Positions 1 to 64,000 are shown, numbered from the stretch's first letter. The stretch: DNA of 64,000 bases from Antedon mediterranea (GCF_964355755.1 NC_092680.1:14765045-14829044); one strand, 5' to 3'. Translations and numbers: made by a program. Notes: generated from the sequence alone by a model not told the origin.

Positions 1-1554
1 GATGCTGTTGCTGGTGTGGGCATTTCGCCAGACTTATGGGAAAGCAAAGTGATTTGTGCCAACTTCGATGGTGCAAGTGTAATGATGGGGGATGTTAATG
101 GAGTGGCAGGTAGACTGAAACGGAGAATACCACACATCGTAATTCTGCATTGTGTTGCCCACAAACTAGAGTTGGCAGTATTAGATGCTATTAAAAAGCT
201 GCCATTTCTACTTGAATTTGAAGAGACAATTAAGTCGGTATTCAAAATGTACTATTACTCACCAAAGAAAAGGCGTGAACTAAAGGAGATTGGACGATTA
301 ATCGAGGAAAAGGTAGCCCACTTCAGTGGACTTAAATCAACAAGATGGGTGCCAAGCCGCCTAAGAAGCCTGAAGGCTATTGAAACCAATTATGCAGCAA
401 CAATCATGCATCTGGAAAACATGTCCACATCACAAAGAGGTGAAGAAGCTGCCAAGGCCAGAGGCATAATGAAGGCCATGCAAACCACTAGATTTGTAAA
501 ATGTCTGCATTTCATGATCGATTACTCTACAATTCTAGCCAAATGTAGTGAGGGTTTCCAGCATGAACAAATATTCATAGGACATGTTAAAGAAATCATA
601 CAGTCCACTACATCAAAGTTGATAAGGCTCAAGACAGTGCCTGGAGAATCATCAGCTATTAGCTCAGTGACCTTTTGACAGGTAAATTATATTGTTTTGT
701 AATTATTTATGAGTAATGATTATTATAAATATAATATAATAAAATAGGATCAATTTATTTATCATAATTTATTGTCTTCTTCAGGTGAAAATCGGCAGAC
801 TTACAAGGGAGTAAACCTCACCAATAGACGGCAGTCTCGCTTGATCCCTGAAGCTATCCCAGACAGCAGTGATTTCAGTAAGGTCTTGGATGATACTGTT
901 AAGTACCTTGACGCACGATTTGCAAACTTCGACGAAGAACCATTGTCTTGTTTCGATATATTTGATATTTCGAAATTGCCCCATGATAGGCAGGCAGTGT
1001 CAACCTATGGCGACAGAGACATTGAAATGCTTGTAAAGCATTTTGAATCTGTGTTGACAGATGATGAAATTAAAGCAATCCCTGATGAATGGTCAGATTT
1101 GAAGATTTGGATGTCAGCCCACAGAGGAGTTGGACGATTAATTGATTTATATGGAGATCTTATAAGAGAGAATCCACCTCATCTGAGTAAAGTTCTTGTT
1201 TTGTTGCAGGTCCTTCTCACTCTAAGTCCATCCACAGCTGCTTGCGAAAGGGGGTTCTCCACTATGAATCGAGTAAAAACATGCCACAGAACCTCCCTAT
1301 TACCTGACACATTAAACAATCTAATGCAAATATCTGCAGATGGATGTAAGGTTGAAGAGTACTCCCCAGATAAGGCAGTAGAACATTGGTTTTTCTCTGC
1401 TAAAGGTACAAGACATCTTGAGCACAAGACCCCAGCAAAATCGAATGTTGTGGTTGATGAATCAGAATCTGAGGAGGAACAACATAGGCCTATTTTTGAA
1501 GCAGCAGCAGAATTTGAATCTGGATCAGATGAAGAAACAGATTCTGATTTTTAA
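1..1554 (+). pseudogene. hAT-family (ZNF862-like) transposase, 3' part, two exons
   Basis: Motifs NFDGASVMMG, HCVAHKLELAV, YYYSPKK, STRW and the C-terminal dimerisation motif PSTAACERGFSTMNRVKT. GT-AG intron 682-784. An apparent 1-nt frameshift near 660 is needed to join the exons. Confidence 0.9.
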
Positions 1555-2000
1555 ATTAAAATGTCACGTCCTTAAGTCTCCAGTCTCGCTACAACTAAAA
1601 AATACATTTATGTTGTTATTTTTAAAAACCAATTAGTTTTAACTTTACGTAATTATAATAAACAATTACGTTATTAAAGTACTTTTTATATTATATCTAA
1701 CATAAAGAAAAGAAATGTATACAAACCCAATATTACAATGGCTCAATCCAATACTTTTTTCCAGCTACTTTTGTAGAATATAGTTCAAGTTAGTTCTGTA
1801 ACTTTACATGCATGGTTTATTTTTTTTTATTTTAGATACTGAGTGTAAGTCACTCTCACTGTGTATTTGTGTTTATAAACTACTGTAATTAGTTTATTAA
1901 ATTGTACCTTTTTTTACATGATATTTGTGCAAGACTGTTTCATTTGTGTAAACTCAAATTATAGTAAAATTTTGGTAAAACGTTGAAATTAAGTTAAAAT

Positions 2001-2094
2001 AGTGGTGGGCAAGTAAAAAATGATGAGGGCAACTAAAACCCAAATCCTACTTGCCCGAAGGGCAACCAAATATTTTAGGATTCTGCGAGCCCTG
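2001..2094 (+). mobile_element. 3' terminus of the hAT element
   Basis: Ends ...TTCTGCGAGCCCTG (reverse complement CAGGGCTCGCAGAA, hAT-like TIR), with subterminal GGGCAA/TTGCCC motifs, and abuts a minisatellite. Confidence 0.7.
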
Positions 2095-2320
2095 GGAAGG
2101 CTACTGTACATTATAAATCATAGAAAGGCTTTATTACATAGGAAGGCTACTGTACATTATAAATCATAGAAAGGCTTTATTACATAGGAAGGCTACTGTA
2201 CATTATAAATCATAGTAAGGGTTTATTACATAGGAAGGCTACTGTACATTATAAATCATAGTAAGGGTTTATTACATAGGAAGGCTACTGTACATTATAA
2301 ATCATAGTAAGGGTTTATTA
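2095..2320. repeat. 46-bp minisatellite, about 4.9 copies
   Basis: Unit GGAAGGCTACTGTACATTATAAATCATAG(A/T)AAGG(C/G)TTTATTACATA starting at 2095, 2141, 2187, 2233, 2279. Confidence 0.95.
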
Positions 2321-3120
2321 TAAATTTTGAAACAAAGTATAAACAAAACCAAACATGTATAATGTTATAAATTAAATATAAATAAATTTGTGGAAAGAGA
2401 TTTAAAACTAATAGTCAACATTTAAAATTACATTTGAAGATACACAGAAGAGAGAAAACATACTGTACTGTATAAATGTTAATGTTCTGTGTGTTACTGT
2501 TTTTTGTACACACACACTTTCAATTTCAAAGTGTACACTGTTAGTAAATTGTTGTTTTAACATTTATTATAGTACTATGATACCTTTAGGACTTAATTAT
2601 TGTATTATTTTAATTCACTTTATTGTGTCTCTCCAATGTATATTTTCAAATGGCTTTTATTCTCACAATATTCAGATTCATTGTGCGAGTTCTAATGTTT
2701 TTTAAAAATTCTCACTTTATGGCAATGGTTTATTATTATCTATTTTGTTTGATTGACATTGTTTTATAGTATTAAATCTTTAAAACTCATAATAAACTTC
2801 AATGTATTATTTTTTTTTCTCTCTTTTGTGGCGTTAACCACTATTTTATGATTGAATGATTTTACAGTACACTTCATCCAAATATATATTCCCTTGTTAT
2901 TCTGTTCTGTTATTTTCTTGTACTTTCTTGTATCTTTTGGACAAAGGTATATATATAAATAAATAAATATTTACAATATATAAAATGCAATACAATTACT
3001 CAACTATTCTATGCTTTATAGATACAGAAGCATCCAAGAGAGAACATGTGTTGCTTCAATTCCAAACTTATATATGGTATAAACATTAATGTATTTCCAT
3101 AAATCATTTGCTTCAGTACA

Positions 3121-4199
3121 TTGGTAAAAGAAGTGTTTATCATCTATTATTACGGTAATATTGCATTTAAAGAGCCTTCTATTGGTAGGAATAATACAAT
3201 GCAATAGTTTGAAATTTAGCTGTTAAAGTTTGTTATCTTTAATATCATTTACTTTTCTTTTCCATGTCTTTAATGCCATAAACTTACAATATTTTGTTTT
3301 AAATTGTCAAAAATGACGGCCATTTTGAAATTGAAAACCCCCTTGCCTATGAACACAAAATGAGCAAATACTTTTTGGATTCAGTGATGTATATTCTACA
3401 ACATATCCAAATTTTATCAAATATAGCAAATAAAAATGCAACCTTCCAAAATATCCTAGACTATTATGCTGGCTTTACTTGCCAACTTCTTTTAAGTCAT
3501 GCGATATGTGGTCACTTTTATCAGGAGATGAAAAAAGAAATGTGGTGAAGGAGTGAAGGAGGTGCCAACTTTGGCCTTGATGCATACTGCGAAATAGAGC
3601 ATATTTCTGCTGAAAGGATGGCAACTGTTGACCATCTAACAAATATTGACAAATTAAGGAACAACATACTTTTGAAGGAAACCCTATCGGAATTGTTAAA
3701 TTCAACAACTAAACAAAAGATACCCTATTTGGCTAAGACGTTGACTGAAACCGATATGGTCTATATCGTAATAGGTGTTAAAGTAATGATGCGACAAACT
3801 GATATTCTAAGCACATCCCACTCACCAATATCTATGATGAAAACAAAATCCATCTATCAACATATATTGGATCGATATAGTTATCCAGCAGGACAGTATC
3901 TAATCAGAAGACATTCTGCTCAGAAAATATCATTGTAAAATTAAAAACCATGGCAAATACTGGCACAACATTAGTTCGAAGTAAAATAAAAGATTCCACT
4001 AGCAACATATATTTGACATCAAAGCAAAAGAAAGAAAAGAAATTAGAGGCATTGGCTGTAAGGAATACCAAAGTACAAAAAGTAGTTCAAAGTGAATTCA
4101 ACCTATGCCAATCTTTCCTGGACTGGAAAGGCAAGAAATTGGCATTAGGAAAGCATGCTGGTGTAAAGAAGTCATTACTAAACTTACTCATAACAAACG

Positions 4200-4231
<32 letters not shown>

Positions 4232-4839
4232 ATGCGAGAAAATGGGCCTCATTTCTTTCAGACTGCAAGGAAAGCATATACCACAAGTATTTAGAAATAC
4301 TATAATATACACAACAGTTGAATTTGCAGGCTCAAAATTTCAAGCAAAATGTTCAACTGGTCTTCAATATGTTGAACATGTACAAAGACTGCTTTTAAAG
4401 CCACGCAATAGCACCAACATCATAATATGCGAGGAAAATTTTTTTTTCACTCCAGATTTTTTTTAAATGGGCGAAAGACAAAATTTAAAGAAGGAAAAGA
4501 CCAAAGTGTCAAGCCTTCATTTGCTCATATGTAAGCAGCACAGAAATTAGACCCCTATAAAATTTAGTTCAAGGACCTGTGGAATCACATGACCTCCTTT
4601 GCAGCTAAGGTTGGGTCTCTGGAATTTGACTTATTATCATTAAATAGTCAGATACTGAGAAACCAACACTTGCATTTACTTTGTGTGTATTATTTCACAG
4701 ATCATTTTGGGACCCGGATAACAAATTTGGCGATCCTGCCAGGACCATACTTATATTAAAGAAGTTGAACAAAGAAGTACCACTTAGAGAATTTAAGTAT
4801 GGAGCAACAGAACCTGACCCAAAAGTTATTCCAGTTAAC
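3121..4839 (+). repeat. ~1.7 kb direct duplication, copy A (degenerate TE-like ORFs plus a truncated exon)
   Basis: Near-identical to 5677-7350. ORF 3618-3938 is identical in translation to ORF 6164-6484. Confidence 0.95.
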
Positions 4840-5676
4840 TTTTGTTTCTTTTATTAGACACAAGAAGAAATAACCAAATTACCCCACCATCCATCTCATA
4901 CCAAAAGGCAGTTAGTATTGCAAATGGGTGAACATTTTTAGTAGACTGCCAATCAATGATCGATGCTTCAATGTGACAAACTGTGGCATATTCCGTTTGT
5001 AGTATGGTGCTAACTTGAGTAACAGATCACTAGGTGCTTGCGCTTTACCCAGTGCACCAGCTCCTTCTGAATTGGCAAGTTGTTTTTCCATGTTTTGTGT
5101 GTAGAATTCTTTGTTGACGTCTGACTTGGGCATATCATGCTTAATATTTAACGCTGCATCATGCACCTGAATTGGTAAACCATATTCTAAATCTAAGAGA
5201 CATGTTTGGCAGACATTTTTAATCTTACTGCACGTTTGGCAAACCTCTGTTTTCTTAAACCTCATTCTGGCACCAGGACAGCAACAATATATAGTGAAAG
5301 GCCGCTCACAAATTTTGCATTCCTTTCCAAATTTCTCTTTAATCATTCTGACATACGGATTATCCCCAAGACAAGTCTGACAAAGAATCGGGAAATCTGC
5401 ATCTTCCCAACCTTGTCTATTGTAAGTATTTGCTCCCTTGCTTGTCGCCATCTTGGTTTTTGAAGTAAAAATCTAAAGTAAACAGGTTAAATATTTGTTC
5501 TGTTGTTTATATAAATCTATTAAAATCTTTCTTAGTATAGCCACATTGATAGGCCGTAAAAAAACAATTTGGTTTTCAATTTGAAAACCCCTCACTATAG
5601 AATGGCTTACAAATATAGAAAGCAATATAAAATATATCAAACCTCTGTCACGACGAGCAGGCCACGATGTAACCAA
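4840..5676 (-). pseudogene. RBM22: Internally deleted copy of pre-mRNA splicing factor RBM22
   Basis: ORF 4912-5451 ([36 protein letters not shown]...[16 protein letters not shown]...PYYKRN) is the RBM22/Slt11 N-terminus. Similarity stops before the CCCH finger and RRM. It is followed by UTR-like sequence, AATAAA (4850-4855) and an A-rich end. Confidence 0.92.
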
Positions 5677-7350
5677 TTGGTAAAAGAAGTATTTATCATC
5701 TATTATTACGGTAATATTGCATTTAAAGAGCCTTCTATTGGTAGGAATAATACAATGCAATTTAGCTGTTAAAGTTTGTTATCTTTAATATCATTTACTT
5801 TTCTTTTCCATGTCTTTTAATGCCATAAACTTACAATATTTTGTTTTAAATTGTCAAAAATGACGGCCATTTTGAAATTGAAAACCTCCTTGCCTATGAA
5901 CACAAAATGAGCAAATACTTTTGGATTCAGTGATGTCTATTCTACAACATATCCAAATTTTATCAAATATAGCAAATAAAAATGCAACCTTCCAAAATAT
6001 CCTAGACTATTATGCTGGCTTTACTTGCCAACTTCTTTTAAGTCATGCGATATCTGGTCACTTTTATCTGGAGATGAAAAAAGAAATGTGGTGAAGGAGT
6101 GAAGGAGGTGCTAACTTTGGCCTTGATGCATACTGCGAAATAGAGCATATTTCTGCTGAAAGGATGGCAACTGTTGACCATCTAACAAATATTGACAAAT
6201 TAAGGAACAACATACTTTTGAAGGAAACCCTATCGGAATTGTTAAATTCAACAACTAAACAAAAGATACCCTATTTGGCTAAGACGTTGACTGAAACCGA
6301 TATGGTCTATATCGTAATAGGTGTTAAAGTAATGATGCGACAAACTGATATTCTAAGCACATCCCACTCACCAATATCTATGATGAAAACAAAATCCATC
6401 TATCAACATATATTGGATCGATATAGTTATCCAGCAGGACAGTATCTAATCAGAAGACATTCTGCTCAGAAAATATCATTGTAAAATTAAAAACCATGGC
6501 AAATACTGGCACAACATTAGTTCGAAGTAAAATAAAAGATTCCACTAGCAACATATATTTGACATCAAAGCAAAAGAAAGAAAAGAAATTAGAGGCATTG
6601 GCTGTAAGGAATACCAAAGTACAAAAAGTAGTTCAAAGTGAATTCAACCTATGCCAATCTTTCCTGGACTGGAAAGGCAAGAAATTGGCATTAGGAAAGC
6701 ATGCCGGTGTAAAGAAGTCATTACTAAACTTACTCATAACAAACGTTTCAAAACAAAGAAAAAGAATGCGAGAAAATGGGCCTCATTTCTTTCAGACTGC
6801 AAGGAAAGCATATACCACAAGTATTTAGAAATACTATAATATACACAACAGTTGAATTTGCAGGCTTAAAATTTCAAGCAAAATGTTCAACTGGTCTTCA
6901 ATATGTTGAACATGTACAAAGACTGCTTTTAAAGCCACGCAATAGCGCCAACATCATAATATGCGAGGAAAATTTTTTTTTCACTCCAGATTTTTTTTAA
7001 ATGGGCGAAAGACAAAATTTAAAGAAGAAATTTGCTCATATGTAAGCAGCACAGAAATTAGACCCCTATAAAATTTAGTTCAAGGACCTGTGGAATCACA
7101 TGACCTCCTTTGCAGCTAAGGTTGGGTCTCTGGAATTTGACTTATTATCATTAAATAGTCAGATACTGAGAAACCAACACTTGCATTTACTTTGTGTGTA
7201 TTATTTCACAGATCATTTTGGGACCCGGATAACAAATTTGGCGATCCTGCCAGGACCATACTTATATTAAAGAAGTTGAACAAAGAAGTACCACTTAGAG
7301 AATTTAAGTATGGAGCAACAGAACCTGACCCAAAAGTTATTCCAGTTAAC
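5677..7350 (+). repeat. ~1.7 kb direct duplication, copy B
   Basis: Matches 3121-4839. Differences are the A-run at 4200-4229 and a ~30 bp indel near 4492-4520. Confidence 0.95.
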
Positions 7351-7413
7351 GAAAGATATCAGGGGAAACTCTATGATCTGGGAAAGAACCAGCTCCAAGA
7401 ACTTGGATTTTAG
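7212..7413 (+). pseudogene. Terminal coding exon of an unidentified gene
   Basis: Acceptor TTTCACAG, then SFWDPDNKFGDPARTILILKKLNKEVPLREFKYGATEPDPKVIPVNERYQGKLYDLGKNQLQELGF*. Protein-like composition but family not recognised. Confidence 0.5.
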
Positions 7414-7855
7414 GGTTAATTTTTCATTATATAATTTAGGCCTAAGTAGCATTTTAATTTTTATATCATTATAATGTTTGATATAAGGAACAATTATTAG
7501 TTGTATGTTATTTAGTTCTATAATCATGTTTTATATTCAAAATTGCCAAATTAAGATACCTATTGTTTGAATGCTAGAGCGAGCTGGGATTTACCATTAT
7601 CACTCGGGTGATGGTTATGTTTATTTTTCGGTGACCTATTTAATGTTCATATACTAGTTTATGTGATTTTAATTTCTTTGGTTAAAAACTGTAATCAATA
7701 ATTGTGGAAATTATTTTTAGTCATAATAATTGACCCCGCTTTATAATGGACGATGACGAGTTGCATATAAACTTAGTATAAAAAGTACATATTAAAAATC
7801 ACTGTTTGGTTGCAAAATTTGTACCAAGAGATTCATGTAAAATGTTTTCCTTTAG

Positions 7856-9128
7856 AATCTGGTCCACAATACCGTTCCGGTAACAATAGGGAGTCTACTA
7901 CTACTACTAGGCCTACTAGTAGTAGTGGTAGTAGGCCTACTACTACAACTAGTGGGCCACTTCCAACATCGTGGATGAGCATAGGAGGCTATTCCGAAGA
8001 ACACCAATCGTAAGGATATATATATATTTAAATTAAAAATGTGCTTTATAAACCTATTATATAATACACACTCTTAAAACAAAAGTGTTACATTTAACAC
8101 TAACACTACAAGGACGTTTGCAAAGTGTTACATTTAATAATGTGAGAGGGATAGATACCGGTACTACGTCGCGGTAGGATTTTTATACACTAAGTATACA
8201 GGAGTGTAATTGCTAACTTGTTGGGTAATGGATTGATAGCTGCTTCTTTAAAACGAACAATTATATTAGTCCGAATTATACTGATAATTTATCCATCTAT
8301 GCGCCAATCAATATGCACGTAGCCGCATTAAAATGAAACATTGACGTTCGATTGAATTTGCCGCTAATTGGAGGCCCTTCAGACCGTCATCATTATATAT
8401 TTATAAAAGATACCAATCCAAACAACAAACAAAGCCTATGCTCACATTGGCAAGACTAGTATTCCGTGATCACAGGAATGGTCGAATATTATAGAAGACA
8501 AAATGAATAAGAATCAATACATTTTTGAACAGTTAGGCCTATATTAAGGATGACGGAGATGCTTTTAAATGTTACACTGCCCGCCGCACACATCATTGAA
8601 TCTCCTGGGAAATACATTAACCATAACAAGATTTTCTATAATGTACACACTCACTTTCATTTTGATTCCAGAGATGTTTTTGGCCTCAGCCACTATGCTA
8701 AATGGGGAAAACTGTTTAAATGTTTTAATGAAATTTTTCATTTACGTGCGTTTATTTTCTATAGATTTAATCTTGGCTATCTCAGTCCGGCCTTACGCAA
8801 CTTCTTCACGCAACACAAGTAAGACTTTATTGTTGAAAATTTAGGCATAAAGAAAATAGGTACTAAGTCGTACTTTATTGATATAATAAAACATATAGGT
8901 TAGGTCTGCCATACTTTCTGCAGGTTTAAGCAGTAGAACTGAAATGAACAATATAATTTTGTTTTCAGCAAGACATTTGACAAAAGAAATTATGTGTCTG
9001 CCAACAAAGGACTGCATTGAGGTACCGTCTCTAGCATACCAGCGTATACTGCAGGCGAACGGCATTGGAAAGAAAAAGATACGGTTTACCTGTAATGCAG
9101 ATGCCGAAGAGGTCCGAAGTATACTAAG
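7856..9128 (+). pseudogene. N-terminal exons of a G2E3-like HECT-associated gene
   Basis: Exon 7856-8009 is S/T-rich. Exon 8969-9128 reads EIMCLP...VPSLAYQRILQANGIGKKKIRF...EEVRSIL, resembling the N-terminal domain of expanded G2E3-like genes. Canonical splice sites. Confidence 0.5.
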
Positions 9129-9514
9129 GTATAGATTTTACATTCTGACTTTAGCATGTTATTAAAATATTACTCTCGGCCGAAGAGTATTGTATGCAAA
9201 ATGTGGTTATGTAGGTCTATGCCTGTTCTAAATTCTGGAAATTTGAATTTACTTTTAAACACTTTGGAGAAGACCTATAGTGTTTCAATTCTATAGCGGG
9301 GCCTTTCATTAATTTTTCTGACATCGGTATTAAGTTTCACAATTTGTAATCTTTCTCCACAAAAATAAGACAACAAAAACCTTATAGGCCTACACTATAT
9401 TATCATATTGCAATTTAATTGAAAGATTATTTTCTATAAACTGATGTTTTCTGTTACGGTATTCAATGGAAATGTTTATGTAATGTAAGTGTGACATTAG
9501 CCCAAACGTTTTAG

Positions 9515-10240
9515 GCAATACATTATGATGTCAGAGCTGATGGATTCCCCTGTGAAAAGGAAAACGTCCGTGTCCGGAGTTGTAGAAGAGGTATCTGAAT
9601 AGTGAATGCATTACCAGGGTTAATAGAGAAGCCAAATTAATTATATAATGTTGAAGGTTGTGAATCGACCTTTAGGAGTAATGGTACAACGGTATTGTTG
9701 TACTGTAGTAATTAAATGTGGACAAGATTGGTCTTTCATTTAAAGACTAATATCGTGTGATGTTGAATGCTCATGCAAGACATAGAAATTGATGTTCTGT
9801 TAATTAAGAGATATGTTGTGAAATAAATGTTGTTTTGAATGTTGCAGGTGTACCCTATGAGGGTTGATAGCAAATGGAAATGACTCGATTTCCGGATTTC
9901 GGACGGGGGAGTAACAGCATTAAGTGCAAACTATGGAATCAATGTTCATCACAACTTGATGAAGAAAGTGTTGGAAAGAAAATTATAGTTAAAAACGTTG
10001 AGGTTGACATGTTCAACAATGTTAAAAGTGTACAGTCAACTGATTTAACCACGGTGGAGGTAATGTTTAGTCAGAAAATATGTTATTTAAACGGTGGTCA
10101 CAATTTGTTCAATGCAAATGAAGACTGTTTCGTTTACCTATTTCTTTAATTATTAAAATAACCAGGAAGTGTGTTTATTTCAGTTCGTAGAAGAAGAATG
10201 TAAAGTAAAGGTGACCATCATTGGTGTAGATGAAGAAGAG
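9515..10240 (+). pseudogene. RPA-like OB-fold gene fragment (paralog 1), three exons
   Basis: Exons 9515-9590 (DSPVKRKTSVSGVVEE), 9848-10059 (IKCKLWN...GKKIIVKNVEVDMFNNVKSVQSTDLTTVE) and from 10184 (VKVTIIGVD). Confidence 0.65.
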
Positions 10241-10469
10241 TACTTTAACGTTATTACATTACTGCATGTACATGCCATAAGAATGTTTACTGCGTTAGAG
10301 AATAATTGAAAGTTCATCCCACTTTTATTTCCATAAAAACATATATATTGTACAGTTCTGTTATACATCACTTTATATGTTTTGACCCATTGTGTTTTTA
10401 AATACGTTGACAAAAATCTTATCTTATATACTTTAATTTATTTTATTATTAACTATTTATTATAAAAAA

Positions 10470-10820
10470 AACCTCCATCCATTAAATGGAAACCACAAAG
10501 GCTTCCAGATTTAGTACAAATTCTACACAAAATTGCGAAAATACAATATGCACACGACTGGCGGGCAATTCTTACGTTATCCCTAGATTAAAAAAATATA
10601 CAGTGCCAAATTCGGTTTGGATAGGGAAATCTGAAGAAGAAAAAAACCATTATGTTTCACGATTTCTGAAAATATCACTGAACAAAACAAAACACAGTTG
10701 AAAAAACAACAACATCTAAAGACAGGAAATTAATTATTCCTGCAACACCACAATGCGCTAAAAAACCAGGACAAAAAAAGTACCAGAGTTGCAAAAACCA
10801 CATCATTCAGAAAGAAATAA
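10470..10820 (+). mobile_element. C-terminal fragment of a Mutator-like transposase
   Basis: Frameshifted IKWKPQRLPDLVQILHKIAKIQY...GNSYVIPRLKKYTVPNSVW...AKKPGQ. Confidence 0.4.
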
Positions 10821-10955
10821 GATTTGTATCTAGGTCTGACGGAAGTAATGGTGAAGATTCTAATGACATAATGTAATTGGTGTAATAATCAATAATATGT
10901 GTTCCATTTTTGTACAATATACTAAGCAAAAATTATGCAACGTTTACCTTTTCAG

Positions 10956-11270
10956 GCTGTTCAGGTTCTTCTAAAGTCTTCCATAATATGCTACTGAAGT
11001 ATATGCCAAAGCAAAGTCACGACAGCCACGAGTGTATGGTGGCAAGAGGCTGTTCAGCAGTATTAGACTATAACGAGTGTATGGTGGCAAGAGGCTGTTT
11101 AGCAGTATTGGACTATAACTTGCATACTTGCCGAGAGGCTGAAATAGACCACAAGTATTCGGTCGAATGGTCAAAGCCTTCAAAGAGATATGTGGCAAAA
11201 TGTGTCAGGAAGCCAAAAGATTATGTGTTCAGGACCGATTTAATGAAGGGCGTATTTGAACAAGCTATTC
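10956..11270 (+). mobile_element. Kolobok-type transposase C-terminal fragment with an in-frame 45-bp tandem duplication
   Basis: KVFHNMLLKYMPK...MVARGCLAVLDYN...WSKPSKRYVAK...KDYVF. The segment ECMVARGCxAVLDYN is duplicated at 11028-11117. Confidence 0.65.
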
Positions 11271-52830: not shown

Positions 52831-52973
52831 CGATCGGCTGGTTGGTATGCCTGACAACCAATCGATAATGCCGAGCGCAAGTGTTCGGTCTAGGCCTGTA
52901 ACTCCTAAACCAACCACTACTACTTTTAATAACAACGAAGGTAGTCACAAAGCAACTTTACTTTATAAATTAG

Positions 52974-54665
52974 GTGGGGAAGTTAGTGGAGACACCCACT
53001 TATAAGAGACGATGTCTGAAGTTAGGCACACAGGAATCAAATATTGATTTAGTCCTTTGGGGCGATAAAAGTCAGTTGATTGACTGGAAAGCACTGAAAC
53101 AAGTGACCGTTTCGGCGGTAGTGGTAGAGGAAACAAATAAACTTAAAAGCACAAGATCTACTGTTGTAGAAGTACTGTAAGTGTTGTGATGGTTTTTTTA
53201 TTTTGCATGCCAAGTTTGAGGTTTATGGCGGCTTGATATTTACCAAATAGGCATGCTCTCGGCCTAATTCTGTCTATTGTCGTCTGGGCAAGGTGTCTCG
53301 GGTTGGAGTGCGCTAAAATAATTGCACTACGATGTTGTTCTTTATATTAGTTTGTTGGTTGTATAATTAGTATCGGTAAAGTGATATTGAATATTGTAAG
53401 CTCAACATATTTTGTGTTATAATTTAAGCTTGAGATGTGTAGGAAGGCTTGACTTTTTAAGCGTATAGCCTACTCAAATGTTATTTAATCATTACCAATA
53501 TATTTTAGTTAAATTGAATAAATAAATATGTCGGTTAACAATGGCCATATACATGGCTGTTTACCGACCGACCAACCATAGTGAGCTGTAGAGACGCATT
53601 GCACGCGATTTAATACGAAGATATTTTTATTTTGATAGTGAAGTAAATAAAGGTTATTAAGAAAGAATGAAACATGTCGTAACTGGAATGGAAATAGCGT
53701 TATTGAAATTAATAAATATTGAAAAAAAAATGAATTTACTTGGAAAAATGATGGTGAATTACTTTGTATTTTGAGAAGAATTAGAATTAGATATGATTTG
53801 TACGCTGTATTTATTAAACAATGTCTAATTTAAGACTGATTCTGATTCTGAATTTTTAGAAGGGGTGGTCATCAGGCTTGGCAATGAGAACGAAGGGTGT
53901 GTACTTCTATATTTTATATTACCCAGCAGGAATTTTGTGTAACTTTGGCGTTTGGATTTGGGAAATGGGGAGGTTGTGTGATTGGTTTTAGATGCGTGTA
54001 ATAATAGGCGCTTTTTTTTGGGGGAAAGGTAAGATCGATCGATGACAAACAATACTTTTCAGGGAAACGTAACCAGCAGAAATACGTCAATATAGCGGGA
54101 CGAGCATATTTTTGGAGGGCAATTGACATAAACATGTGTAATTTCTTATTTAATCGATTTATAGACATATTTGGACTATAGAATGTTTTTAAAAGATTAA
54201 CTGGCATCATCAATAAATGTGAAATTTTTGTGGTCATTTTAACAGTGTGGTTGCTTCAACACTATGTCTCTTTTCTTTTATTTTAGGCGCTCAACAACAT
54301 TTTTCAATTATTTTTTTTAATCAAAATTAATAATGTAGGGTAATATTTTTGCAACATTTAACGCTTTTTGTTATACGATTTTCTGTTAGTTTCGCTGGCA
54401 AGAAATGTTTTTCGTGAAAGATGTTTTCCGTTTCATCCATGGAAAGATAAGGAAGGTCAATGTGTTGGTTTATAAAAAGAACCGGCAATGTTATTTTTTT
54501 AATGTTTCATTGTTTTGTTATTATTTCATTTTTAGATATCCTGTAGACGTAATCCTCGAAGATGGTGAAATTTTAAAAATTCCAGAGGGTTTTTATTTTG
54601 ATTTGGAGATTGAATTGCCTGCCAAAGTCAACTATCAAAATGACGGAGATACTGTAGGTTGTTAA
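52974..54665 (+). pseudogene. RPA-like OB-fold gene fragment (paralog 4)
   Basis: Exons VETPTYKRRCLKLG..DLVLWGD..VTVSAVVVE..LKSTRSTVVE, EFLEGVVIRLGNENEG| and YPVDVILEDGEILKIPE, in the same exon layout as 30245-32170. Confidence 0.7.
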
Positions 54666-55090
54666 CCGCATTAGAAGTGTTTTAAAAGCATGGTATGTAT
54701 TTTTGTAGTGTATAGTGCATTGTTTTAAATAGTTATTTTGCATGCATTGACATGTTTTAGTTTAATATCAAACAGGTTATGTAGATAAACGGATACAAAA
54801 TGTAGTCTTAGTTATAAAGAAAAGTTAATTGAAGCCTTGAAAGAAAACATCAGTGTGGAATTGCAAGCTAGGCAACACATTCAGTTGCGTAACCAGGGAG
54901 CTGATTTTCAACATGTGTAATCAAAGAATGCTCTCTTTTCTGATATTATTCAACATTCTTATTTATAGAATTTATTTAATATCCAATATGCCACTGAGCA
55001 TTTTAGATTTTCCATTTTCCAAAGTTCAAATATACTTAATGTTCAATTCCAGTTTGATTCATTAATGTTTTTATTTTTATTTCTGTCTAG

Positions 55091-56235
55091 ATTCAGTCTT
55101 CTACTTCCGTTGAGTCACTACAATCAGCAGTGGATGAGGCTGAAGATTTTTTGAGTTTAGCGGGTGTGTTAACACACATAGACTCGCTAGATAAAAAAAA
55201 CAAAATTGTGTCCAATGCTGTAAGATTCTATGTCCTTGACAGGACACGATCAGCCTTTGAAAGGTTTGTAAATTTGTAAGAAATTGGTATATGTTAGATG
55301 TTATTTAGAATCGTTATGCAGAGATCAAAACAATCTGTAGACAAAATAGAAAAATTTATGTGATCACGAAATAGACCATGCATTTCAATGTCAACATCGT
55401 CGAAATGAAGGTAAACGATAAATATAATTTCAATTCAAACGGGCAAAAATTAAAATAAATGTAAAATCTGAAATATTGTGTGTACTTGAAAAGTCAAGCT
55501 CAGCATCCCATAATTAGATTTCCTTGGCCTGACTGTCCTTTATTCATTAATTTTAAAATTCTATGCAAATTCTTATTTATCCTTTTTTTTGTAGAATGCT
55601 TTCCGGGCTTGAGACACTGGGTGTCCTGCAAATTATCAGAGAAAATCCTGTAGCATGCAGGAAATGCTTCCTAAATAGTGAAGTTCCTGCAATAACAGCA
55701 GAAACGCTGAGAGACCTCTTTTTTGTTGCTTATAGCGAGAGAGGAAGCAACAAAAGAGCAAAGGAAGAGGTAACTGCCGCTTTCTGGTATGATTACCTGC
55801 TTGACATTGAAGGTACAGTGTGAACAATTTTTAAATTGAGTGTATGTATGTAATGCAATTAGTGTATTAATTGAACTATTATGTTATTGTCTATTGTATC
55901 TTTTAGTTAAAAATACTTTGGTTGCATGGGATTTTCATAACATAATAAAAAGTGTCTAACTACGCCTGTTTCTTTTTTTTTCAGAGGGAACAACCCAATC
56001 TACTCTAGCTGATGTATTGGCTTTTTCCAGCGGAACCACCAGCATCCTCGTAACGACATTTACGGAATTACCCACAATAAACTTCTCACACAGCGATGAC
56101 AAATTTCCAACAGCAAACACATGCAGTGTGGTCCAACAGCAAACACATGCAGTGTGGTGCTGAGACTTCCAACTATTCACTTGGAGTATATAAAATTTAA
56201 AGAAGCTATGGATTTTGGTATCCTAACTGCTCAAA
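55091..56235 (+). pseudogene. G2E3-like HECT E3 ligase, last three exons
   Basis: Exons 55091-55263, ~55595-55812 (GLETLGVL..YSERGSN..FWYDYLLDIE) and from ~55985 (LADVLAFSSG..FPTANTCSVVLRLP..FKEAMDFGIL). A 26-bp duplication at 56107-56158 frameshifts it. Confidence 0.82.
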
Positions 56236-56810
56236 AAACGACTAAAAGATATTAAAATCATCTATAAAATTGGCCAAATCTCAGTTTTTGCATCTTCATA
56301 AATAAAACCTTCATGAAGCTGACAAGCTGAAACTTTGAATCTTGTTTAACAACCCTCTCAAATAGTTGGGAAAAAAATATAAATATGGTATGTCAATTAG
56401 TTACGAAGATATTGTGTCTTAAACATCTTGAAAAGTGCAATTACAACTAAATAATTGTAATTTTTCAGTTTTCCTCACATACAAAATACTTATTTTTTAA
56501 ATTTTAAATTTTGGATAAGTGTTCACAATATACTGGACTACTCACAGAGAAAAGACAATTGCATTTGGACAAAGACTTTTAAAGATATTGGCCCATAAAA
56601 GTACCTCCAGACCTCAAAAAGTGCCTTTTTTGCAGTAGTGGGATACCTTTGAGAGGCCATTGCTCAAAAGTGTACAAGTATTTCATGGAGAACTTTTGAT
56701 ATAGTATGTGTAACATATTCATTTCACAATATCAACTTTCAAAATGTAGATCCAAGAGGTGGGAACGAAATCCATGTTCTAGGCATCTTTTGAGCTACTG
56801 CTTATGGCCT

Positions 56811-58075
56811 ATATACATAGAAAAAAAAATGCTCTTTTTCAGAAAGCATTCTCAAACATACTGAATATAAATAAAATAAGTTATTATACCAAAATATGAT
56901 ATATTTTATGTGTGGTTGAAATGTTTATATTAAATATAGTGTTATTTTATATATGTAGGTAGGTGCACTGGTGGAAACACCGACGTTGTAACGGCAGTAT
57001 GCATAAACTAGCAAACAATTACGTAATTGTTGTATCTGGGTTAATTTGCATAAATGCCAGCGACGTCAACGTATAATAGAATCTAACTGGCTAGTGTGGC
57101 TAGTTGAGATGATGCCAGTGTATAGACCGGAGGTCTTAGTATTAAGAAGTTACACTATATTGAGAATTTACACAATAAAATATCTCGAGTCGATTGTTGC
57201 ATATGATACAAGCTTCTGTGTTCTTTCTTACGTATTATCTCAACTCAAAGAAATGGCCAGTGAGGCCGCAGTTACAGACATTAAAATTGGGCACCGAAGG
57301 TTGTAGCATTGATGTGATGTTGTGGGGTGAGGTTGCTGTGGGTGTTTCAAGCAATCTGAAATCATGTGATGTCTTGATTTCTGCTGTTGAAGTCGAGGAG
57401 GAGAATTTCAAATTGAAAAGCTCTCCTTCCACTGTTGTGGAGGCAAGTTTAATATTTTAAAATAACTGAAAGAAATGTTTTTTTAAAATTGAAATGGAAG
57501 ATGCTTAGGGTACAGGTTACAGTATATATCTTATAAAGACATAAGCTAGTGAAGTGAAATGATAAAAAGAAATGTCTATAATTGGTTATTATGTCTTGCT
57601 TGAAATTGAACTTTGTATTATTTTTATTTATTTTTTTTAAATATTACACGCCTGTAACAGCGAACACATTATTATTATAATTATTCCTTGTACTTATAAA
57701 CTGATTTCGGAGTGGAATTAAAAGAGTCGTAAGTTATTTGCATTAGGTCAGGATTGAACCATGGACCTTGGAATTAGAAGTTCGTGACAGCGATATGATG
57801 TACTTTGTATTTGAATGTCTTAAGCTCTTTTTTTCCCCTTTTCCTATAGCGAACATACCGTTCGACCTATTATGAGAATTGTTGTACAAAAAGGCGGTAA
57901 CTGTTGGTATTAATGCTGAACTAGTATTGAGGGAGGACAACCTGCGAGTAGAGACAACACAGGCAGCAGCAACCATTGCAAAATAAAGCAGAATGTAGCA
58001 AGAATACAGCGTCGTGAGGTGGTTTCCCGAAAGATCGTAAAATCAAAACGGTACTGGGTATGACCAACTAGCGTT
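56811..58075 (+). repeat. Dispersed third copy of the OB-fold/MULE-tail segment
   Basis: Matches 27244-28029 and 28479-29752 with scattered substitutions. Confidence 0.93.
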
Positions 58076-58084
58076 CTTGTCACC

Positions 58085-59115
58085 AACTACTCATCCATTC
58101 ATAGAATGAATACCATCCTATGATCATAAGATAGTGTCTTGCAATTGCATCTAAATCTTCTTATGCATATGTTGAACTCAGAGGTACCTTTACAGGAACG
58201 GGTACAATTGAATTACCAAGCCGACGGCAATTGAAAGATTACATCAATGCCATTAAACTTAAAACTGGTTTTAACCCAGCTATTATTGAAACTTAGACAA
58301 ATATGGTGAAAGATTACATACCACTAGAGAGATATGTTGCAATTTTGTTTGATGAAATGAAGGTTGAAAGTGGATTGGTATGGGACAAGCACTCAGGTGA
58401 ATTGATTGGGTATATTAGGAGATCCTGTTACAAACTATGCAACACTTTAAAGTCAAAAAATATAGCCACCCATGCGCTTGTTTTTATGGTAAAGGGCATA
58501 TGCTCCAAACTGCAGTTTGTGATCAGGTATTTTGCAACAGGAGCAAATGATTGAGCAAATACATCATTTCAATTGTTCCCAATCTTTTGGAAGGCAGTCT
58601 CAATTTTAGAGACTTCGTGTGGACTTGCTGTAGCTGAAACTACAGGATAGGGCATTAGTAATCAGACGGTTCTTCAAAATGCATGCAGAAATGAGAAAGA
58701 TGTTGTGTACAAAGTTAACAATTTCTACGCTTTAAATCGCAACATATTTTTCTTTAGTGATGCTCCCCATTTGTTAAAAACAAGTAGAAATGTTCATTCC
58801 TTGGCAGACACATGAGGGACTCAAAATAAGCTCTTTAATCCGTTTGGTGCAGTTTCTTTTGCTTGAGAATGGAGCCATTGTTTTGTCAAACAAATTATGG
58901 CAAGATTCTGTTGAAGAGTATTTTGGACGACAAAGAAGGCTTGAAAGGTGGCGTGATAACCCAGATATTCGCGATTTTTAATTAAAGGAAAATAAACTGA
59001 GAATTCAATGCTCCATTCTGCAATTAAATGGAAATACCCAAGGAAGAAAAAGAAGAAAGAACGAAACAAGATGGCACAGTGTAAACAATGATCAAATTGC
59101 TAAAAAAAAGCGTTA
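58085..59115 (+). mobile_element. P-element (THAP9-like) transposase, decayed and internally deleted
   Basis: HPMIIR, LPSRRQLKDY, ILFDEMKVESGLVWDKHSGELIGY, ATHALVFMVKG, FFSDAPHLLKTSRN, QDSVEEYFGRQR..DNP. Confidence 0.88.
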
Positions 59116-59778
59116 ACATTTGAAAATGCATACAAAATGCATTTAGATTTGACAGTAAATTGCAGTATGAATTGCAACTTTGGACATAAATTTTGGACAA
59201 TAATTATAAGAAACTAAGTACTAGCATTATGATTATTTCAACAGTCAATTGATAATATATACTATATTGTAATTACCCTAGCCTAGTCCTACTACTACCT
59301 TAGGCTAGGCCACTAATTTTAACAAAAATTAATAAATATAAATATAATGTATACATAACTAATACATACCTGTTCACATGCTTGTTAATATGTATTGGAT
59401 GTGATACAGTAGAGTTTGGCCTCTAAAAATTCGCTTTATAAAAGGTTTAAAATCAATTCTTCGTCACTCCTTGAAAAAGCCATCTTTATAATTACAAAAA
59501 ATTGCAGTGTGCACGGTCACGCTTCATTTAACAGCATAGCGCAAGGATTCAACATTGCGCGAGACCGCATTTGATCTTTACAGTGTTTTCAGACCATTTA
59601 CTTTCTACTGACTATGGTATTATGAATATATTTACGTACATATTCCATGACGACTTTATAAATTAGCTTTTGTAAAATTGAGAATTCCTTAAATTTGGGT
59701 TCGTAATTGAGGGTTTTTAATGTATTCATCAAACTCCATTATCACATACGATACGGTTTACATAATAATATACTGTAC

Positions 59779-61568
59779 TAGGCTCGCGCTAACCGCTCGC
59801 CAATTCGCCAATGGCGACTGGAGTCTCCATTTGGCGAAAATAATTATTGCCTCGTTCGCCAAATTGGCGAAAACACATTTCCAAGCCTAGGCCTAGCCTG
59901 ATCGGCGTGACTTCTTATGGGAGCGACAATTCGCCACACTTCGGTACTTTCTGACTCGGGTACACTTTTTACCACCACAGCATTTTATGTGACGACGTCA
60001 CGATCGCCTTATTCATTTTTTTTTAGTTCTGTTTAAACATGCTCAGAGCGTGCCTCGATGACGTTTTAATGACACACGGTTAATGTGATTGGTTCGTGGC
60101 CGGCCGTCGTCGACGTGATGATGAGCGAATAAAACTAAAAGGGGAAGTCCCTATTCTTCGACGTAGAAAATGAACTTCGAGAAGAAAATGTAAACAGCAA
60201 CATGTGGACGAATACTTCCGTAAACGAGGCTGTTCTGTTATTTAAAAAGGGGAATTTTAAATTTAACAAAGTAATTACCTCAATAGTATAATGTTAACAT
60301 GTTTAATTTTATTTCCCTTTCGATTATTCTAACCGAAAGTTGCGCTTTAAATTGAATAGCTAAGAAACAGCGTATACTACAAGTACAACGGGAACCCTGG
60401 CCAAAGCGCGTTTCGGCCGCCTACATAGAATGGGTTACGGCCGCTGCATAGCAAATTCAAAGCTTCTTAAATTTCTGCGGTACATTTCTTCCTAACGTAC
60501 TTGTTTTATATAATAGATTGATAAATATTCCACTTATTAAATAATTTAACAAATCGGTAAAATTGACGTTTCGAAGCAAATATTCCATGATGAGAGGCGA
60601 CATTTTTCGACATGCCTCGTGTGCGGCGAAGACTAGTTCAGAAAATGGAACAGTCCACTGCGGGGGTTATCCAATCATTAATTAACGCGCTAATACATGC
60701 ATACCATGCACATTGCCTGGGCGACGGTAATTTAGTAATAAGCGGAGAACTGAATCCCCCGTAAGGAAAATGGTAAACACTGATATTTATGGTAGGGATT
60801 ATTTTTTTCAGTGGTTGGTTTTGTTGGCTTCTTCGCACGAGGTCCACGCAAAGTCAAATAAAACGATGTGGTTTTATCAAACAGAAATATAAATTAGCTT
60901 TAATTCACTACTAAATTAGCCAGATTTTGATAATGAGAAAGACTCAAAAATTCAATTTTTATCGTTAAAATTGACATATGAGGCGGATGTACATAATAAT
61001 AATAACCGATTTACATATCAAAATAAAGAGTATTTAAAGCCTGATAACATGCAACAAAAATTACGCCACCACTTATTATGGACCTCGTGCGATCGGGTGC
61101 GAAAATGGGTAGGTGTTTTCCAAAGTTATTTTTAGCGCGCGGATTTCGGCTCGCCGGCTTTTGTACCTCATTTTTAACTCGCGTTTTCTATTAAAATATT
61201 TAATAAACATAGATTAAAAATATATAAAAACAATCCCTTAAACAAGATCTTTCCAGGCATATAATTTTTATTCTCATGGGTACATAAGAAATAGTATATT
61301 TTTAACTTCAAAGACACGTCACTTTTTGAAATTTCACGAACGTGTTAAAATCGCAGTAACGAAAATCAGCTTTATTGGGATACCTAATAATAATATAAAT
61401 GTAAAAGAAGTAAAATAACAAACAAATACATGCATTATTTATTTAATAAACATTTTTGCAAATTTTTATGGTTTTTTAAATTTGGCTAAAGGATTTTCAT
61501 TTTGGCTAATGTTTTTCAAAACCTTTCGCCATTCTGGCGAACGAAAATTTGACCTTAGCGCGAGCGTA
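59779..61568. mobile_element. Non-autonomous hAT-like element
   Basis: TIR TAGGCTCGCGCTAA / TTAGCGCGAGCGTA (one mismatch), subterminal TCGCCA/TGGCGA repeats, and CTGTAC on both flanks (degenerate TSD). Confidence 0.7.
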
Positions 61569-61867
61569 GCTGTACATACCACTGTTGAAGCACTTCTGTC
61601 AGCAAACTTGATATCTGCATTGAACTCTATTAATCACATAACAATAGGGTTTACATACCATTAGACTATTGTTGTTGATTGCAAACTTGATAAAGTATCC
61701 CTATCATCAGCAAGTGACATACAAATCAACAGGTTACCCTAATATAGGCTGACCTACAAAAATATAACCACAAAAAAAGGTTATGTACCAACACATAATG
61801 GTATCGGGGATGTTTCGACCCAGGAACAATTGGGCCGGAAAGTTGCAGGGCATAAATGTATCGGCAA

Positions 61868-63410
61868 GGGTTCGAGGCTCACTCGCTCCATGGTTCTGGT
61901 GGTAGAACGAGTCTTCTCGCATAAGGACTATAAACCGTAGGTCCAGTGTACACATAGCTCATGCGCACTTTAACCGATTCACCACGATAAGCGCTTAAAG
62001 CGCTCAAAAGGTTAAAAGTCAAGGTCATTGTAAACAAATTAACAAAAAAAAAGTAAATCGAATTTACATGCGCAGTTTGCTGTGCATGAATCGTAACAAC
62101 AAATTATACAAAATACTCACAACTTTTTTTTAAAAAATATGCTTCTAAATATATAAAAACAATTGTTGAAGTTAGTTTGAAAATAAAATTCGAAAATATA
62201 ACCGTTTTTCGAAGCACGCTGTTCGAAACGCGACAGGCTCGTTGAATGAATCTAGGCCTAAACATACAACGTAAAATCGTCTAAAATCCATCTTTATTTC
62301 TAATAATCACTATTTTGAAGCTTGTAATTGTATACAATAAATGTATAATAAATTAAGATTATGTATCAGTTACAGTGTCTAAATCGTCATATTTCCATGT
62401 AAAAATGTGATTTTTCTACCGGAGAAAAGTCGTGAAGATGTCCACACGAGGGCCGCGCCATATTGTTTACCTTTGATTGTAATATGAACCCTAACATGTC
62501 AGATGCATTATGGGCATGAAATATTTGTTCAAACTCTGTGCAAAGGTCAGTTTATTGAAGCATAACTTTTGACAAACATTTTGATACCAAACTTGTTTTA
62601 ATTTCATAAGTTTTCGACGCATTTTCGTCAAATTTTCTGCAAGCTACACGTCTAAAACAGCGGACTAAGCTCCCGAGGGATGCCGGTGCGCGTGAGAATT
62701 GCGAATTCCAAGTCGCTTTCGGGATGTTTTTTTTAACATTCCCGGTGAACAAACAGCGGCGACGACGCTCTCGGGGCGGCTCCCGATAGGCCTAGGCCCC
62801 ATATGGTCATCGTCGGATGAGTCAGTCTACTAATTTCTTCATAATTTCGAAACCGGTCATTCATAATGGTCAAGTTTGGTCTTATTTTGAAGAGAAGAAA
62901 TAGGTTCTGATGAAGAGATGAGTTTTATTATGAAATATTTATTAATTTTTGTGCATTTGGTAGTCAAAGATAAATTACAAATTTTTAATAATTTTCCTAA
63001 AATATTTCTAAAATTTGCATAATCCATACTCCGCCAAAATAAGTTGTAACACAAATTTGATAACATATTTGGAAATAAAATGTCCTCTTTGCATTATTTT
63101 TGTTTTTTAATTTTTTTAATGTCTGTGTTTAGAAAAAAAGTTAGGGTTAATTATATGACATATGCTTTTTGGGTCCCAGGGGAGCAAAATAAACTTAGGG
63201 GTCAATGGGTTAAAGAACCTAGTACATCTTTCGAGACGAGTAGGGGTTTACCCCGGTGTACTAGTCCACACAAACACAGCCACTGTCACACACAGCCACT
63301 GTGCAAATTGGGACTGGGCCGTTTTAGAGGTGTTTACCACCTATTTATTCGACTTCTCACTAAAACTAACTGAGTTAGTGAGAAGTCGAATAAATAAATA
63401 AATAAATAAA
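61868..63410 (+). mobile_element. tRNA-derived Nin/Deu-domain SINE split by a TTAA insertion
   Basis: B box GGTTCGAGGC, core ATAAGGACTATAAACCGTAGGTCC..GCACTTTAA|AGAACC..GAGTAGGGG..CCCCGGTGT, and (AATA)n tail at 63389-63410. Confidence 0.8.
61974..63209. mobile_element. piggyBac-like non-autonomous element
   Basis: TTAA TSD (61970-61973 and 63210-63213), imperfect TIR CC(G/C)ATT(C/G)ACC. Removing it restores the SINE core. Confidence 0.8.
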
Positions 63411-63417
63411 AGTATCG

Positions 63418-63600
63418 GATTCCCAATGTATCATGGGCCAAAATGTATCATGGGCCTGTCACGACAAATATGGTCCAGGGCCAAAATCGGTCTGGCCGGA
63501 CCTAAATTTGTGACCAAAAGCAGAATCATGGGCCAAAATGCATCATGGGCCAAAATGCATCATGGGCCAGAATGCATCATTGGCCAAATGCATTGTGGGT
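63418..63600. repeat. 17-bp subterminal-type repeats, probably a DNA-transposon end
   Basis: AATG(C/T)ATCATGGGCCAA units, about 7 copies, after GGATTCCC. Confidence 0.65.
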
Positions 63601-64000
63601 TAACTTTAAAATACTCATTTCCTCTTCCACCAGAAACAAGTTAAAATCAGTTATTTTCTTAATTTTCAATAAAAGCATCTCATTCTCAGTTGATGCAAAA
63701 TGATATTGTGGACAGTCAATTTTGGAACTGTTTGGCAGTTTTTTTACATAAAAGAAATTAAATAAAACGAGCAATTAAACATCCAAATATTAATTACATA
63801 TCCAAATAATTAACATTAAAACATGTTAGCATGTGCTTACTATTGAATTTAGTTACTGGATCGAAAGCTTGTTATTTAAAAAAACAGTATAGGGAAATAA
63901 TAGCATCTAGGCCTAGAGGCCTAGGCCTAATAAAAAAAAAACAGGTCATGAATTTCCTCAACTAAACAAGTTTAAAGATTGTATAGCGTTCCTTATTTTA

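Follow-up and report, generated by a model that had tools for sequence, protein, structure and literature searches.

Co-oriented transposon relics in a 64-kb window of the crinoid Antedon mediterranea: a putative uni-strand piRNA source

The window analysed here, a stretch of 64,000 nt from the crinoid Antedon mediterranea, carries a stack of transposon and cargo relics of cut-and-paste, rolling-circle, LINE and LTR classes, together with a piece of the host gene RBM22 (Table 1). Coding relics stop at about 59.1 kb, and the final 4.7 kb consists largely of high-copy, non-coding repeats; no tRNA genes were found in the window, and all four Rfam matches fell under the gathering score.

Table 1. 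Features of the window; "at" gives the position of each of the 12 Pfam matches counted in the strand census.
Feature	Position	Strand	Evidence and remarks
Transposon and cargo relics stacked in one orientation	1..59100	+	putative − precursor; left end outside window
hAT transposase relic (3' part)	1..1551	+	Pfam Dimer_Tnp_hAT E 1.8e-6 at 748-1551; 32 related loci by tblastn
Direct duplication of 1.7 kb, 3120-4839 / 5676-7350	3120..7350	+	self-BLAST, 96%; brackets RBM22 piece
RBM22 copy, intronless, 3'-truncated, ~first 165 codons	4915..5472	-	STL11_N E 4.6e-27
Exon relics, OB-like and HECT-like; paralogous to 52974-56252	9871..13064	+	
Possible coding relic, weak exception	13566..13799	-	Atlas recognition 2232, below 2300
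Two copies, 15196-15696 / 17804-18280	15021..18280	+	self-BLAST, 94%
Non-LTR retrotransposon C-terminal zinc-binding relic	18253..18480	+	zf-RVT E 0.0015 at 18253
Tract A-rich on −, possible exception	18430..19300	-	no family named
B-box/RING-like cysteine cluster (KDZ only as candidate label)	21028..21201	+	Pfam E 3.1e-5 at 21028
Mutator/Kolobok-like transposase relic	22696..23584	+	MULE E 0.001 at 23073-23288
Transib/RAG1-like transposase relic	24129..25644	+	Atlas lead, 0.92 to RAG1_RNase_H clusters, 24436-24879
Intron-containing gene, tandem and diverged copies	26795..32182	+	recent copy also 56812-58075
Helitron/Helentron-type relic, PHD, OTU and DUF6570 pieces (presumed grouping)	32538..41409	+	PHD at 32538; DUF6570 at 38889 and at 39301
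tRNA-derived SINE head	42766..42832	-	A-box and B-box-like motifs read on −
Broken gypsy-type LTR-retrotransposon relic	45280..47476	+	LTR-like end, gag zinc knuckle, protease start; zf-CCHC E 9.6e-6 at 46599; Asp_protease_2 E 0.09
LINE relic, ORF1 and ORF2 start	48492..51449	+	Baculo_FP_2nd E 2.6e-4 at 49091; RVT_1 E 0.035
THAP domain relic	51744..51992	+	Pfam E 2e-16 at 51744
OB-like plus HECT cargo gene relic	52974..56252	+	HECT E 6.9e-4 at 55960; + strand splice sites
Second tRNA-SINE head fragment	57740..57780	-	B-box on −; duplicate ~29410-29450
P-element-type transposase relic, last coding relic	58135..58978	+	TNP-like_RNaseH_N E 3.6e-15 at 58297
CpG-rich block, high-copy non-coding repeats	59342..63411	.	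CpG o/e 1.42

Several of these relics deserve a comment. The one at 9871-13064 gave Ssb-like_OB at E 0.1 in relaxed Pfam, and its stretches 12322-12375 and 12749-12808 pair in matching orientation with 55130-55273 by self-tblastx, where only motif-level pairs were used because linking inflates the E-values; the portion at 10889-11353 we take to be a Kolobok/Mutator-like C-terminal piece. The duplicated piece at 15021-18280, presumably a Penelope-like reverse transcriptase, is bridged by a contig from another sample (run X1; joint 15193-18218). As to run X1 itself, its use as RNA was set aside, its flat low depth, rising at repeats common to other runs, being DNA-like. Homolog searches with the MULE-like piece and with the OB-like pieces of 26795-32182, whose gene copies we assume to be OB-like cargo, returned no match, which is weak evidence, and the Transib/RAG1-like relic matched neither Pfam nor PDB. 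Non-coding TIR elements are nested at ~34600-36430 inside the Helitron/Helentron-type relic, the gypsy-type relic shows high depth in DNA-like runs, and the LINE belongs presumably to a CR1/L2-type clade.

All stop-to-stop frames of at least 45 aa in the window (n=504; 231 on + and 273 on −) were scanned against Pfam at E<=0.01. Matches were obtained for 14 of the 231 + frames, 12 being of transposon or cargo type and two (IL3 and PGA2, E 0.007-0.01) unrelated, borderline and discarded as noise, while the 273 − frames gave three, namely RBM22 and two borderline ones (DUF6355 and Cation_ATPase_C, E 0.007-0.009) discarded likewise, and none of transposon or cargo type. Six of the 12 + matches (zf-RVT, B-box, MULE, PHD, HECT, Baculo_FP_2nd), plus the second DUF6570 piece, lie under the curated Pfam cut-off. 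With the Helitron-type pieces collapsed into one, a grouping of our own, and with the one Atlas lead added, we count 11 units, all of them on + over ~59 kb (two-sided binomial p=0.001 before window selection, or p=0.006 allowing one weak − exception), p-values that overstate significance as the window was chosen for its strand bias; moreover, several + pieces are local duplicates or members of a single cargo family, hence not independent. Among 27 hand-picked read-through frames, which are not an unbiased set, OTU (E 7e-6) and the RVT_1 start were gained on +, and none of the nine chosen − frames matched. ORFs taken from 32 metagenome loci, used as tblastn queries, contributed matches to hAT and THAP only, all orientation-consistent.

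The first-pass annotation had claimed that every assignable coding relic reads on +, which agrees with our census. Of its roughly 20 family labels, about half were not confirmed by the tools, Merlin, KDZ, DIRS-like, Myb, BEN, Harbinger, Penelope, the second Helentron, two of three Kolobok and the Nin-SINE having no family match. When 26 chosen frames were put through Pfam at relaxed settings, weak OB and protease hints were all that emerged in support of the labels, and none of four PDB queries matched. What we take to be Kolobok-like, Penelope-like, BEN-like, Harbinger-like and Deu/Nin-SINE-like motifs were recognised on + by eye.

A strand-blind scan for protein-likeness led in the same direction. 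At score >=10 it returned 36 segments on + vs 6 on −, with block-shuffle means of 2.1 and 0.7, the shuffles themselves retaining a skew of about 3:1; with shadows removed and score >=8, the count was 51 vs 6, and protein-like sequence amounted to 15.1 kb on + vs 1.4 kb on −. The + strand was ahead in seven of the eight 8-kb bins, the last one being level at 3:3, and the identical scan applied to flanking DNA of other organisms (41 kb, drawn from 15 out of 32 hAT-anchored loci), a weak control, gave 8 on + vs 5 on −. The strand bias of the window is real.

Exceptions on the − strand do occur. Of the two exceptions listed previously, the SINE head is now confirmed from its sequence motifs and the tract at 18430-19620 stands as a possible one, but the list was incomplete, since two SINE heads and two unassigned tracts are found. 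Other genomic copies of the second head, seen at loose contig ends, extend into an A-box-like end, and by strand the short SINE heads number two on − and one on +. The tract at 13566-13799 had no Pfam match and scored in Atlas 0.95 to unnamed clusters and 0.83 to Helitron_like_N clusters; that at 18430-19300 gave no Pfam match in three frames and no PDB match in one.

The − orientation assigned earlier to RBM22 was upheld by STL11_N on a − frame. The piece matches Antedon mediterranea RBM22 at 91.7% in a single contiguous ungapped-frame tblastn match of ~165 codons, and the intronless call rests on this contiguity rather than on intron positions of the crinoid parent gene; the copy is likely processed. 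It shows neither an A-tail nor a short target-site duplication, the 1.7-kb direct duplication flanking it instead.

Signals of transcription were considered over the same interval. On the − strand, the putative precursor strand, AATAAA occurs 90 times in 1-59300 vs 71+/-7.5 expected, and depletion of poly(A) signals was not found there. Acceptor-like splice motifs are enriched on + (34 vs 21+/-4.7) and not on − (22 vs 25+/-4.8), therefore we see no exon signature on −; nor did the 273 − frames of at least 45 aa, which shorter exons would escape, reveal any host exon in 59 kb besides the RBM22 piece. The right-end block, with CpG o/e of 1.42 vs 0.68 (depletion) over 1-59.3 kb, contains a TIR element (59779-61570), whose target duplication is 5 bp long, and also a SINE on + (61860-61955 / 63210-63411) that is interrupted by a 1.25-kb insert, with contig joints 61955-63210. 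A promoter CpG island at 59.7-63 kb was ruled out: depth is 30- to 2500-fold over baseline in six of six bins, and because all six are high-copy repeat the CpG-rich right end is not a unique promoter. Between 7.4 and 26.7 kb, 22 of 30 bins are near baseline contig depth (run X4, 93% likeness), the relics there being mostly old fragments with few close copies, although depth is no copy number. With few close copies of many relics elsewhere, present-day piRNA targets may be few.

Taken together, the strand bias, the relic mix and the lack of any − host exon apart from the RBM22 piece fit a piRNA-cluster architecture, and with modest confidence we favour the reading that the window is a putative uni-strand piRNA source read on the − strand. 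We propose that the stack would be transcribed as one long − strand RNA, whose processing would supply antisense piRNAs directed at many transposon classes. Insertion presumably takes place in either orientation. A copy lying antisense to the precursor would be retained, its piRNAs silencing the family, and a sense copy would be lost because its own splice and poly(A) signals would shorten the precursor; later deletions probably reduced what remained to short pieces that abut one another. The RBM22 fragment, one case only, has the same sense as the precursor and may be tolerated because no antisense guides to this essential gene would arise from it, and SINE heads, short and non-coding, may evade the orientation bias. 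The promoter would sit to the right, beyond 59 kb and possibly beyond 64000. In favour of this piRNA source stand the 11 co-oriented units and the segment counts sustained over seven of eight bins; against it stand the undepleted AATAAA on −, the lost promoter candidate at the right end and the more numerous − exceptions.

The alternative that survives best, although we hold it to be unlikely, is that the window belongs to an ordinary − gene or lncRNA, as part of a very long intron or of a read-through tail, with little or no piRNA output, sense insertions having been purged because they disrupted transcript processing. A 70% intronic bias, if assumed, would yield 11 of 11 units with p=0.02, and the CpG depletion of the first 59.3 kb is compatible with gene-body methylation. 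Such a gene would, however, have to run for at least 59 kb with no exon, and seven of the 11 named units are of DNA-transposon, Helitron or cargo types, whereas intronic orientation bias of DNA transposons is weak. Mammalian intronic LINE and LTR elements are indeed biased antisense, and the purge of sense elements gives the same direction of bias, but, in the available text of that study, the bias is strongest near exons, and no flanking exon was seen in our 59 kb, and DNA transposons were omitted from the orientation analysis (PMC3088655). If the window is merely a long intron, it would be a modest example of orientation purging.

It is less probable still that the polarity arose, without any host silencing role, from local co-oriented duplication and from a small number of large composite DNA elements, perhaps just one (Helitrons or other cargo carriers), which collected fragments in the same orientation as themselves. 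All long internal duplicates are direct by self-BLAST, three or more diverged sets of OB-like/HECT cargo share one orientation, an 8.9-kb Helitron-type relic lies mid-window and the 1.7-kb duplication brackets RBM22, all of which would suit such an origin. The 11 units were nevertheless counted with duplicates already collapsed, contig depth varies >100-fold between pieces, unlike in one multi-copy element, and the LINE, LTR, hAT, P and RAG-like relics come from superfamilies with no relation to one another; a Helitron capture paper, in its available part, gives no co-orientation rule and includes reverse capture (PMC4224331).

An ordinary gene-poor transposon graveyard, one-sided by chance and by the choice of an extreme window among thousands, appears quite improbable to us: in a genome of several thousand windows a few could reach the p-values obtained, but the 51 vs 6 segments and the corresponding lengths speak against it, coding relics so many would be expected in few windows, and the motif-level relics that we believe to recognise by eye are likewise on +. 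Transcription of the region on +, where it would act in ping-pong amplification as a decoy or a sense substrate, we regard as very improbable. Intact + strand splice motifs in several relics speak for it, but they are the relics' own signals; the RBM22 piece would then run antisense to a gene that is essential, and known uni-strand clusters hold TEs antisense in the available text of PMC10643416, PMC11615739 and PMC10495008.

Among known systems, the accessible parts of the literature offer two kinds of comparison for our putative piRNA source. With flamenco and flam-like clusters of Drosophila, of which D. melanogaster flamenco is 79% antisense (PMC10495008), the window shares being long, gene-poor, TE-dense and strongly one-stranded, with structural turnover; the strand bias of the fly clusters is due exclusively to Gypsy elements (PMC10643416), whereas only one of our 11 tool-named units is gypsy-type (a gag relic), most being DNA-transposon, Helitron, LINE and cargo, and our locus is known from sequence alone. 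The label "flamenco-like" given before is thus too specific. The other comparison is with the mammalian pre-pachytene piC-DoG read-through clusters, which capture antisense TEs, and the mostly uni-stranded clusters of planarian and slug (PMC11615739): what is shared is a single-strand precursor, putative in our case, with antisense TE fragments of more than one class captured as in the mammalian clusters, the difference being that our host is a crinoid. Starfish transposon piRNAs have 5'U and 29-30 nt (PMC6085071); the available text of a mollusc piRNA paper (PMC6128900) yielded nothing on TE orientation in clusters, and we found no paper on crinoid piRNA clusters in the open-access literature.

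A bolder version, which we regard as tentative and rather doubtful, is that of a crinoid master piRNA locus trapping all classes strictly antisense, cut-and-paste and rolling-circle elements included, that would grow partly by template-switch duplication (a fragment between long direct repeats, as RBM22) and let in pieces of host genes in sense only, where they do no harm. If this were true, the one-strand trap would reach the deepest branch of the echinoderms and would hold for more than the Gypsy elements to which it is limited in flies. The putative uni-strand source, if confirmed, would itself be a defined one in a crinoid, on which it would be possible to test the antisense trap on DNA transposons and Helitrons, apparently not acted on in flies, and to test whether orientation filters host-gene pieces; it would also support the prediction of clusters from genome sequence in non-model animals.

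The coding relics of the window (64 kb, ~34% GC, zero N) lie almost entirely on the plus strand, and its short SINE pieces show no strand preference (one on plus, two on minus). When every stop-to-stop frame of at least 45 aa (231 on plus, 273 on minus) was scanned against Pfam at E<=0.01, families of transposon or cargo type were found in 12 plus frames and 0 minus frames: hAT dimerisation, zf-RVT, B-box/RING, MULE, PHD, DUF6570 (twice), zf-CCHC, Baculo_FP_2nd, THAP, HECT and TNP-like RNase H. Seven of these 12 matches fall under the Pfam curated cut-offs, and borderline matches to unrelated families (2 on each strand) were excluded as noise. Among the 273 minus frames RBM22 is the sole strong match, in agreement with the first-pass annotation. 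Read-through frames of a hand-picked set gained OTU and the start of RVT_1 on plus, with a match in 0 of the 9 picked on minus. As a lead, the Atlas puts one plus frame close to RAG1 RNase H clusters. No tRNA genes were found in the window, and its Rfam scan gave nothing above gathering score.

In a second test, which uses no family library, the six frames were scored for protein-like composition. At a score of at least 10 there are 36 plus and 6 minus segments, while block shuffles that retain the skew give 2.1 and 0.7. At a score of at least 8, with opposite-strand shadows removed, 51 plus segments stand against 6 on minus (15.1 kb versus 1.4 kb of protein-like sequence), and plus exceeds minus in 7 of 8 bins. 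The six minus segments are RBM22, one overlapping a plus segment of similar score, one in an LTR-like region and three at the non-coding right end. A small control in other organisms (41 kb flanking 15 of the 32 hAT-anchored loci) gave 8 versus 5 segments and indicates that the scan is not one-sided by design.

The earlier claim that every coding relic it could assign reads on plus was largely right, although the minus-strand exceptions outnumber those it listed: its SINE head on minus is confirmed, and two more are added in the table. About half of its family labels lack tool confirmation, namely Merlin, KDZ, DIRS-like, Myb, BEN, Harbinger, Penelope, the second Helentron, two Kolobok copies and the Nin-SINE label. 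Also visible on plus is what we take to be Kolobok-like, Penelope-like, BEN-like and Harbinger-like motifs, an L2-like 3' end and Deu/Nin-SINE-like motifs.

Features of the window, in window coordinates
Feature	Position	Strand	Remark
Repeat-flanked RBM22 region	3120-7350		RBM22 piece (~835 bp) exactly between two 1.7-kb direct repeats
Duplicated frames, ~130 aa	3549-4463; 6095-6997	+	no family match in Pfam
RBM22 frame	4915-5472	-	
OB-like exons, then HECT-like part	9871-13064; 26795-32182; 52974-58075	+	intron-containing gene family; co-oriented diverged copies
Frame with weak Atlas lead	13566-13799	-	towards Helitron-like clusters; exception new here
Interval between 0.5-kb direct repeats	15194-18217		15193 joined to 18218 by one contig of run X1
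Tract without assigned family	18430-19300	-	exception
Short repeat	20281-20390		very high depth
Frame near RAG1 RNase H clusters	24436-24879	+	Atlas lead
Nested non-coding TIR elements	34600-36430		within Helitron-type relic; arms 34612-34643 / 36380-36411 and 35360-35386 / 36252-36278; one bears a presumably Harbinger-like N-terminal piece
Hairpin, 66 nt, 94%	40758-40918		in Helitron-type coding relic; sole inverted self-match at protein level
SINE head	42766-42832	-	exception
Second SINE head fragment	~57740-57780; duplicate ~29410-29450	-	exception new here
High-copy non-coding element, 1.8 kb	59779-61570		short terminal inverted repeats; 5-bp target duplication

Coding relics span position 1 to ~59.1 kb. 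Contig depth, which is no copy number and was taken at likeness thresholds that differ between the two regions, is near baseline in 22 of 30 bins of 7.4-26.7 kb (run X4, 93%); in 44-64 kb (88%) high depth marks as repeats the entire 59.3-63.3 kb block, the gypsy-type relic and some of the OB-like cargo, and the pieces of LINE, HECT and P type stay close to baseline. On the left CpG o/e is 0.43, and it climbs to 0.7-0.8 across the right half (in 2-kb bins Spearman 0.56, p=0.002; 0.44-0.73 depending on bin size, 1-59000), a rise that is possibly an age or methylation gradient and may mean older material at the left. The CpG-rich stretch at 59.7-63 kb (o/e 1.42) has a fitting position for the promoter of a minus-strand precursor, and we rejected it because its depth marks a nested high-copy repeat.

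From what is read directly off the window, namely orientation, mix of classes, duplications, the direction of RBM22 and acceptor-like motifs enriched on plus only (34 versus 21 expected; on minus 22 versus 25), the best reading in our opinion is a candidate uni-strand piRNA source read on minus, which we consider plausible. There would be a single long minus-strand precursor; copies antisense to it would be retained and sense copies lost, and RBM22 would be tolerated as sense to the precursor. The piRNA pathway is present in echinoderms, starfish transposon piRNAs being described in PMC6085071 as 5'U and 29-30 nt. Against such a source count AATAAA on minus, which is not depleted (90 observed, 71+/-7.5 expected), the failure to find a promoter in the window and the many relics with few close copies remaining as targets. 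A giant intron or read-through tail giving no piRNAs (cf. PMC3088655) is, we judge, rather unlikely.

It would be more doubtful still to derive the polarity from local duplication or composite elements. Duplication is evident: two inserts are flanked by long direct repeats, the RBM22 piece by 1.7-kb copies and a 2.1-kb stretch by 0.5-kb copies, and the OB-like/HECT cargo is one family, present as three or more diverged sets and as recent local copies, probably carried by a large DNA transposon (homolog search with the OB-like exon gave none). All 11 tool-named units are nevertheless on plus once Helitron-type pieces are collapsed, by our own grouping. The RBM22 piece (best match Antedon mediterranea at 91%, next <=80%) is intronless across ~165 codons, 3'-truncated and without an A-tail, and a plus-strand exon-like frame truncated in the left 1.7-kb copy is completed by the right one; the region looks like a tandem duplication, the piece resembling a templated insertion at its junction more than a standard retrocopy. 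The contig join across the 0.5-kb repeats is likely a within-species deletion haplotype.

Chance combined with window selection seems to us very improbable. For 11 of 11 units the two-sided p is 0.001, rising to 0.006 if one weak exception is admitted; these values take no account of the window having been chosen for its strand bias. A plus-strand transcript is the explanation we find hardest to credit.

As a candidate minus-strand piRNA source, the stack of relics, known here from its sequence, is similar in architecture to uni-strand clusters, such as flamenco (79% antisense, PMC10495008) and those predominating in planarian and slug (PMC11615739). The term flamenco-like, used in the first-pass annotation, is better dropped: PMC10643416 defines it by a bias that is exclusively Gypsy-driven, unlike that of the stack. 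We found no paper on crinoid piRNA clusters in a search of mainly open-access literature. A bolder and only tentative suggestion is that the stack may be a crinoid antisense trap for all transposon classes.
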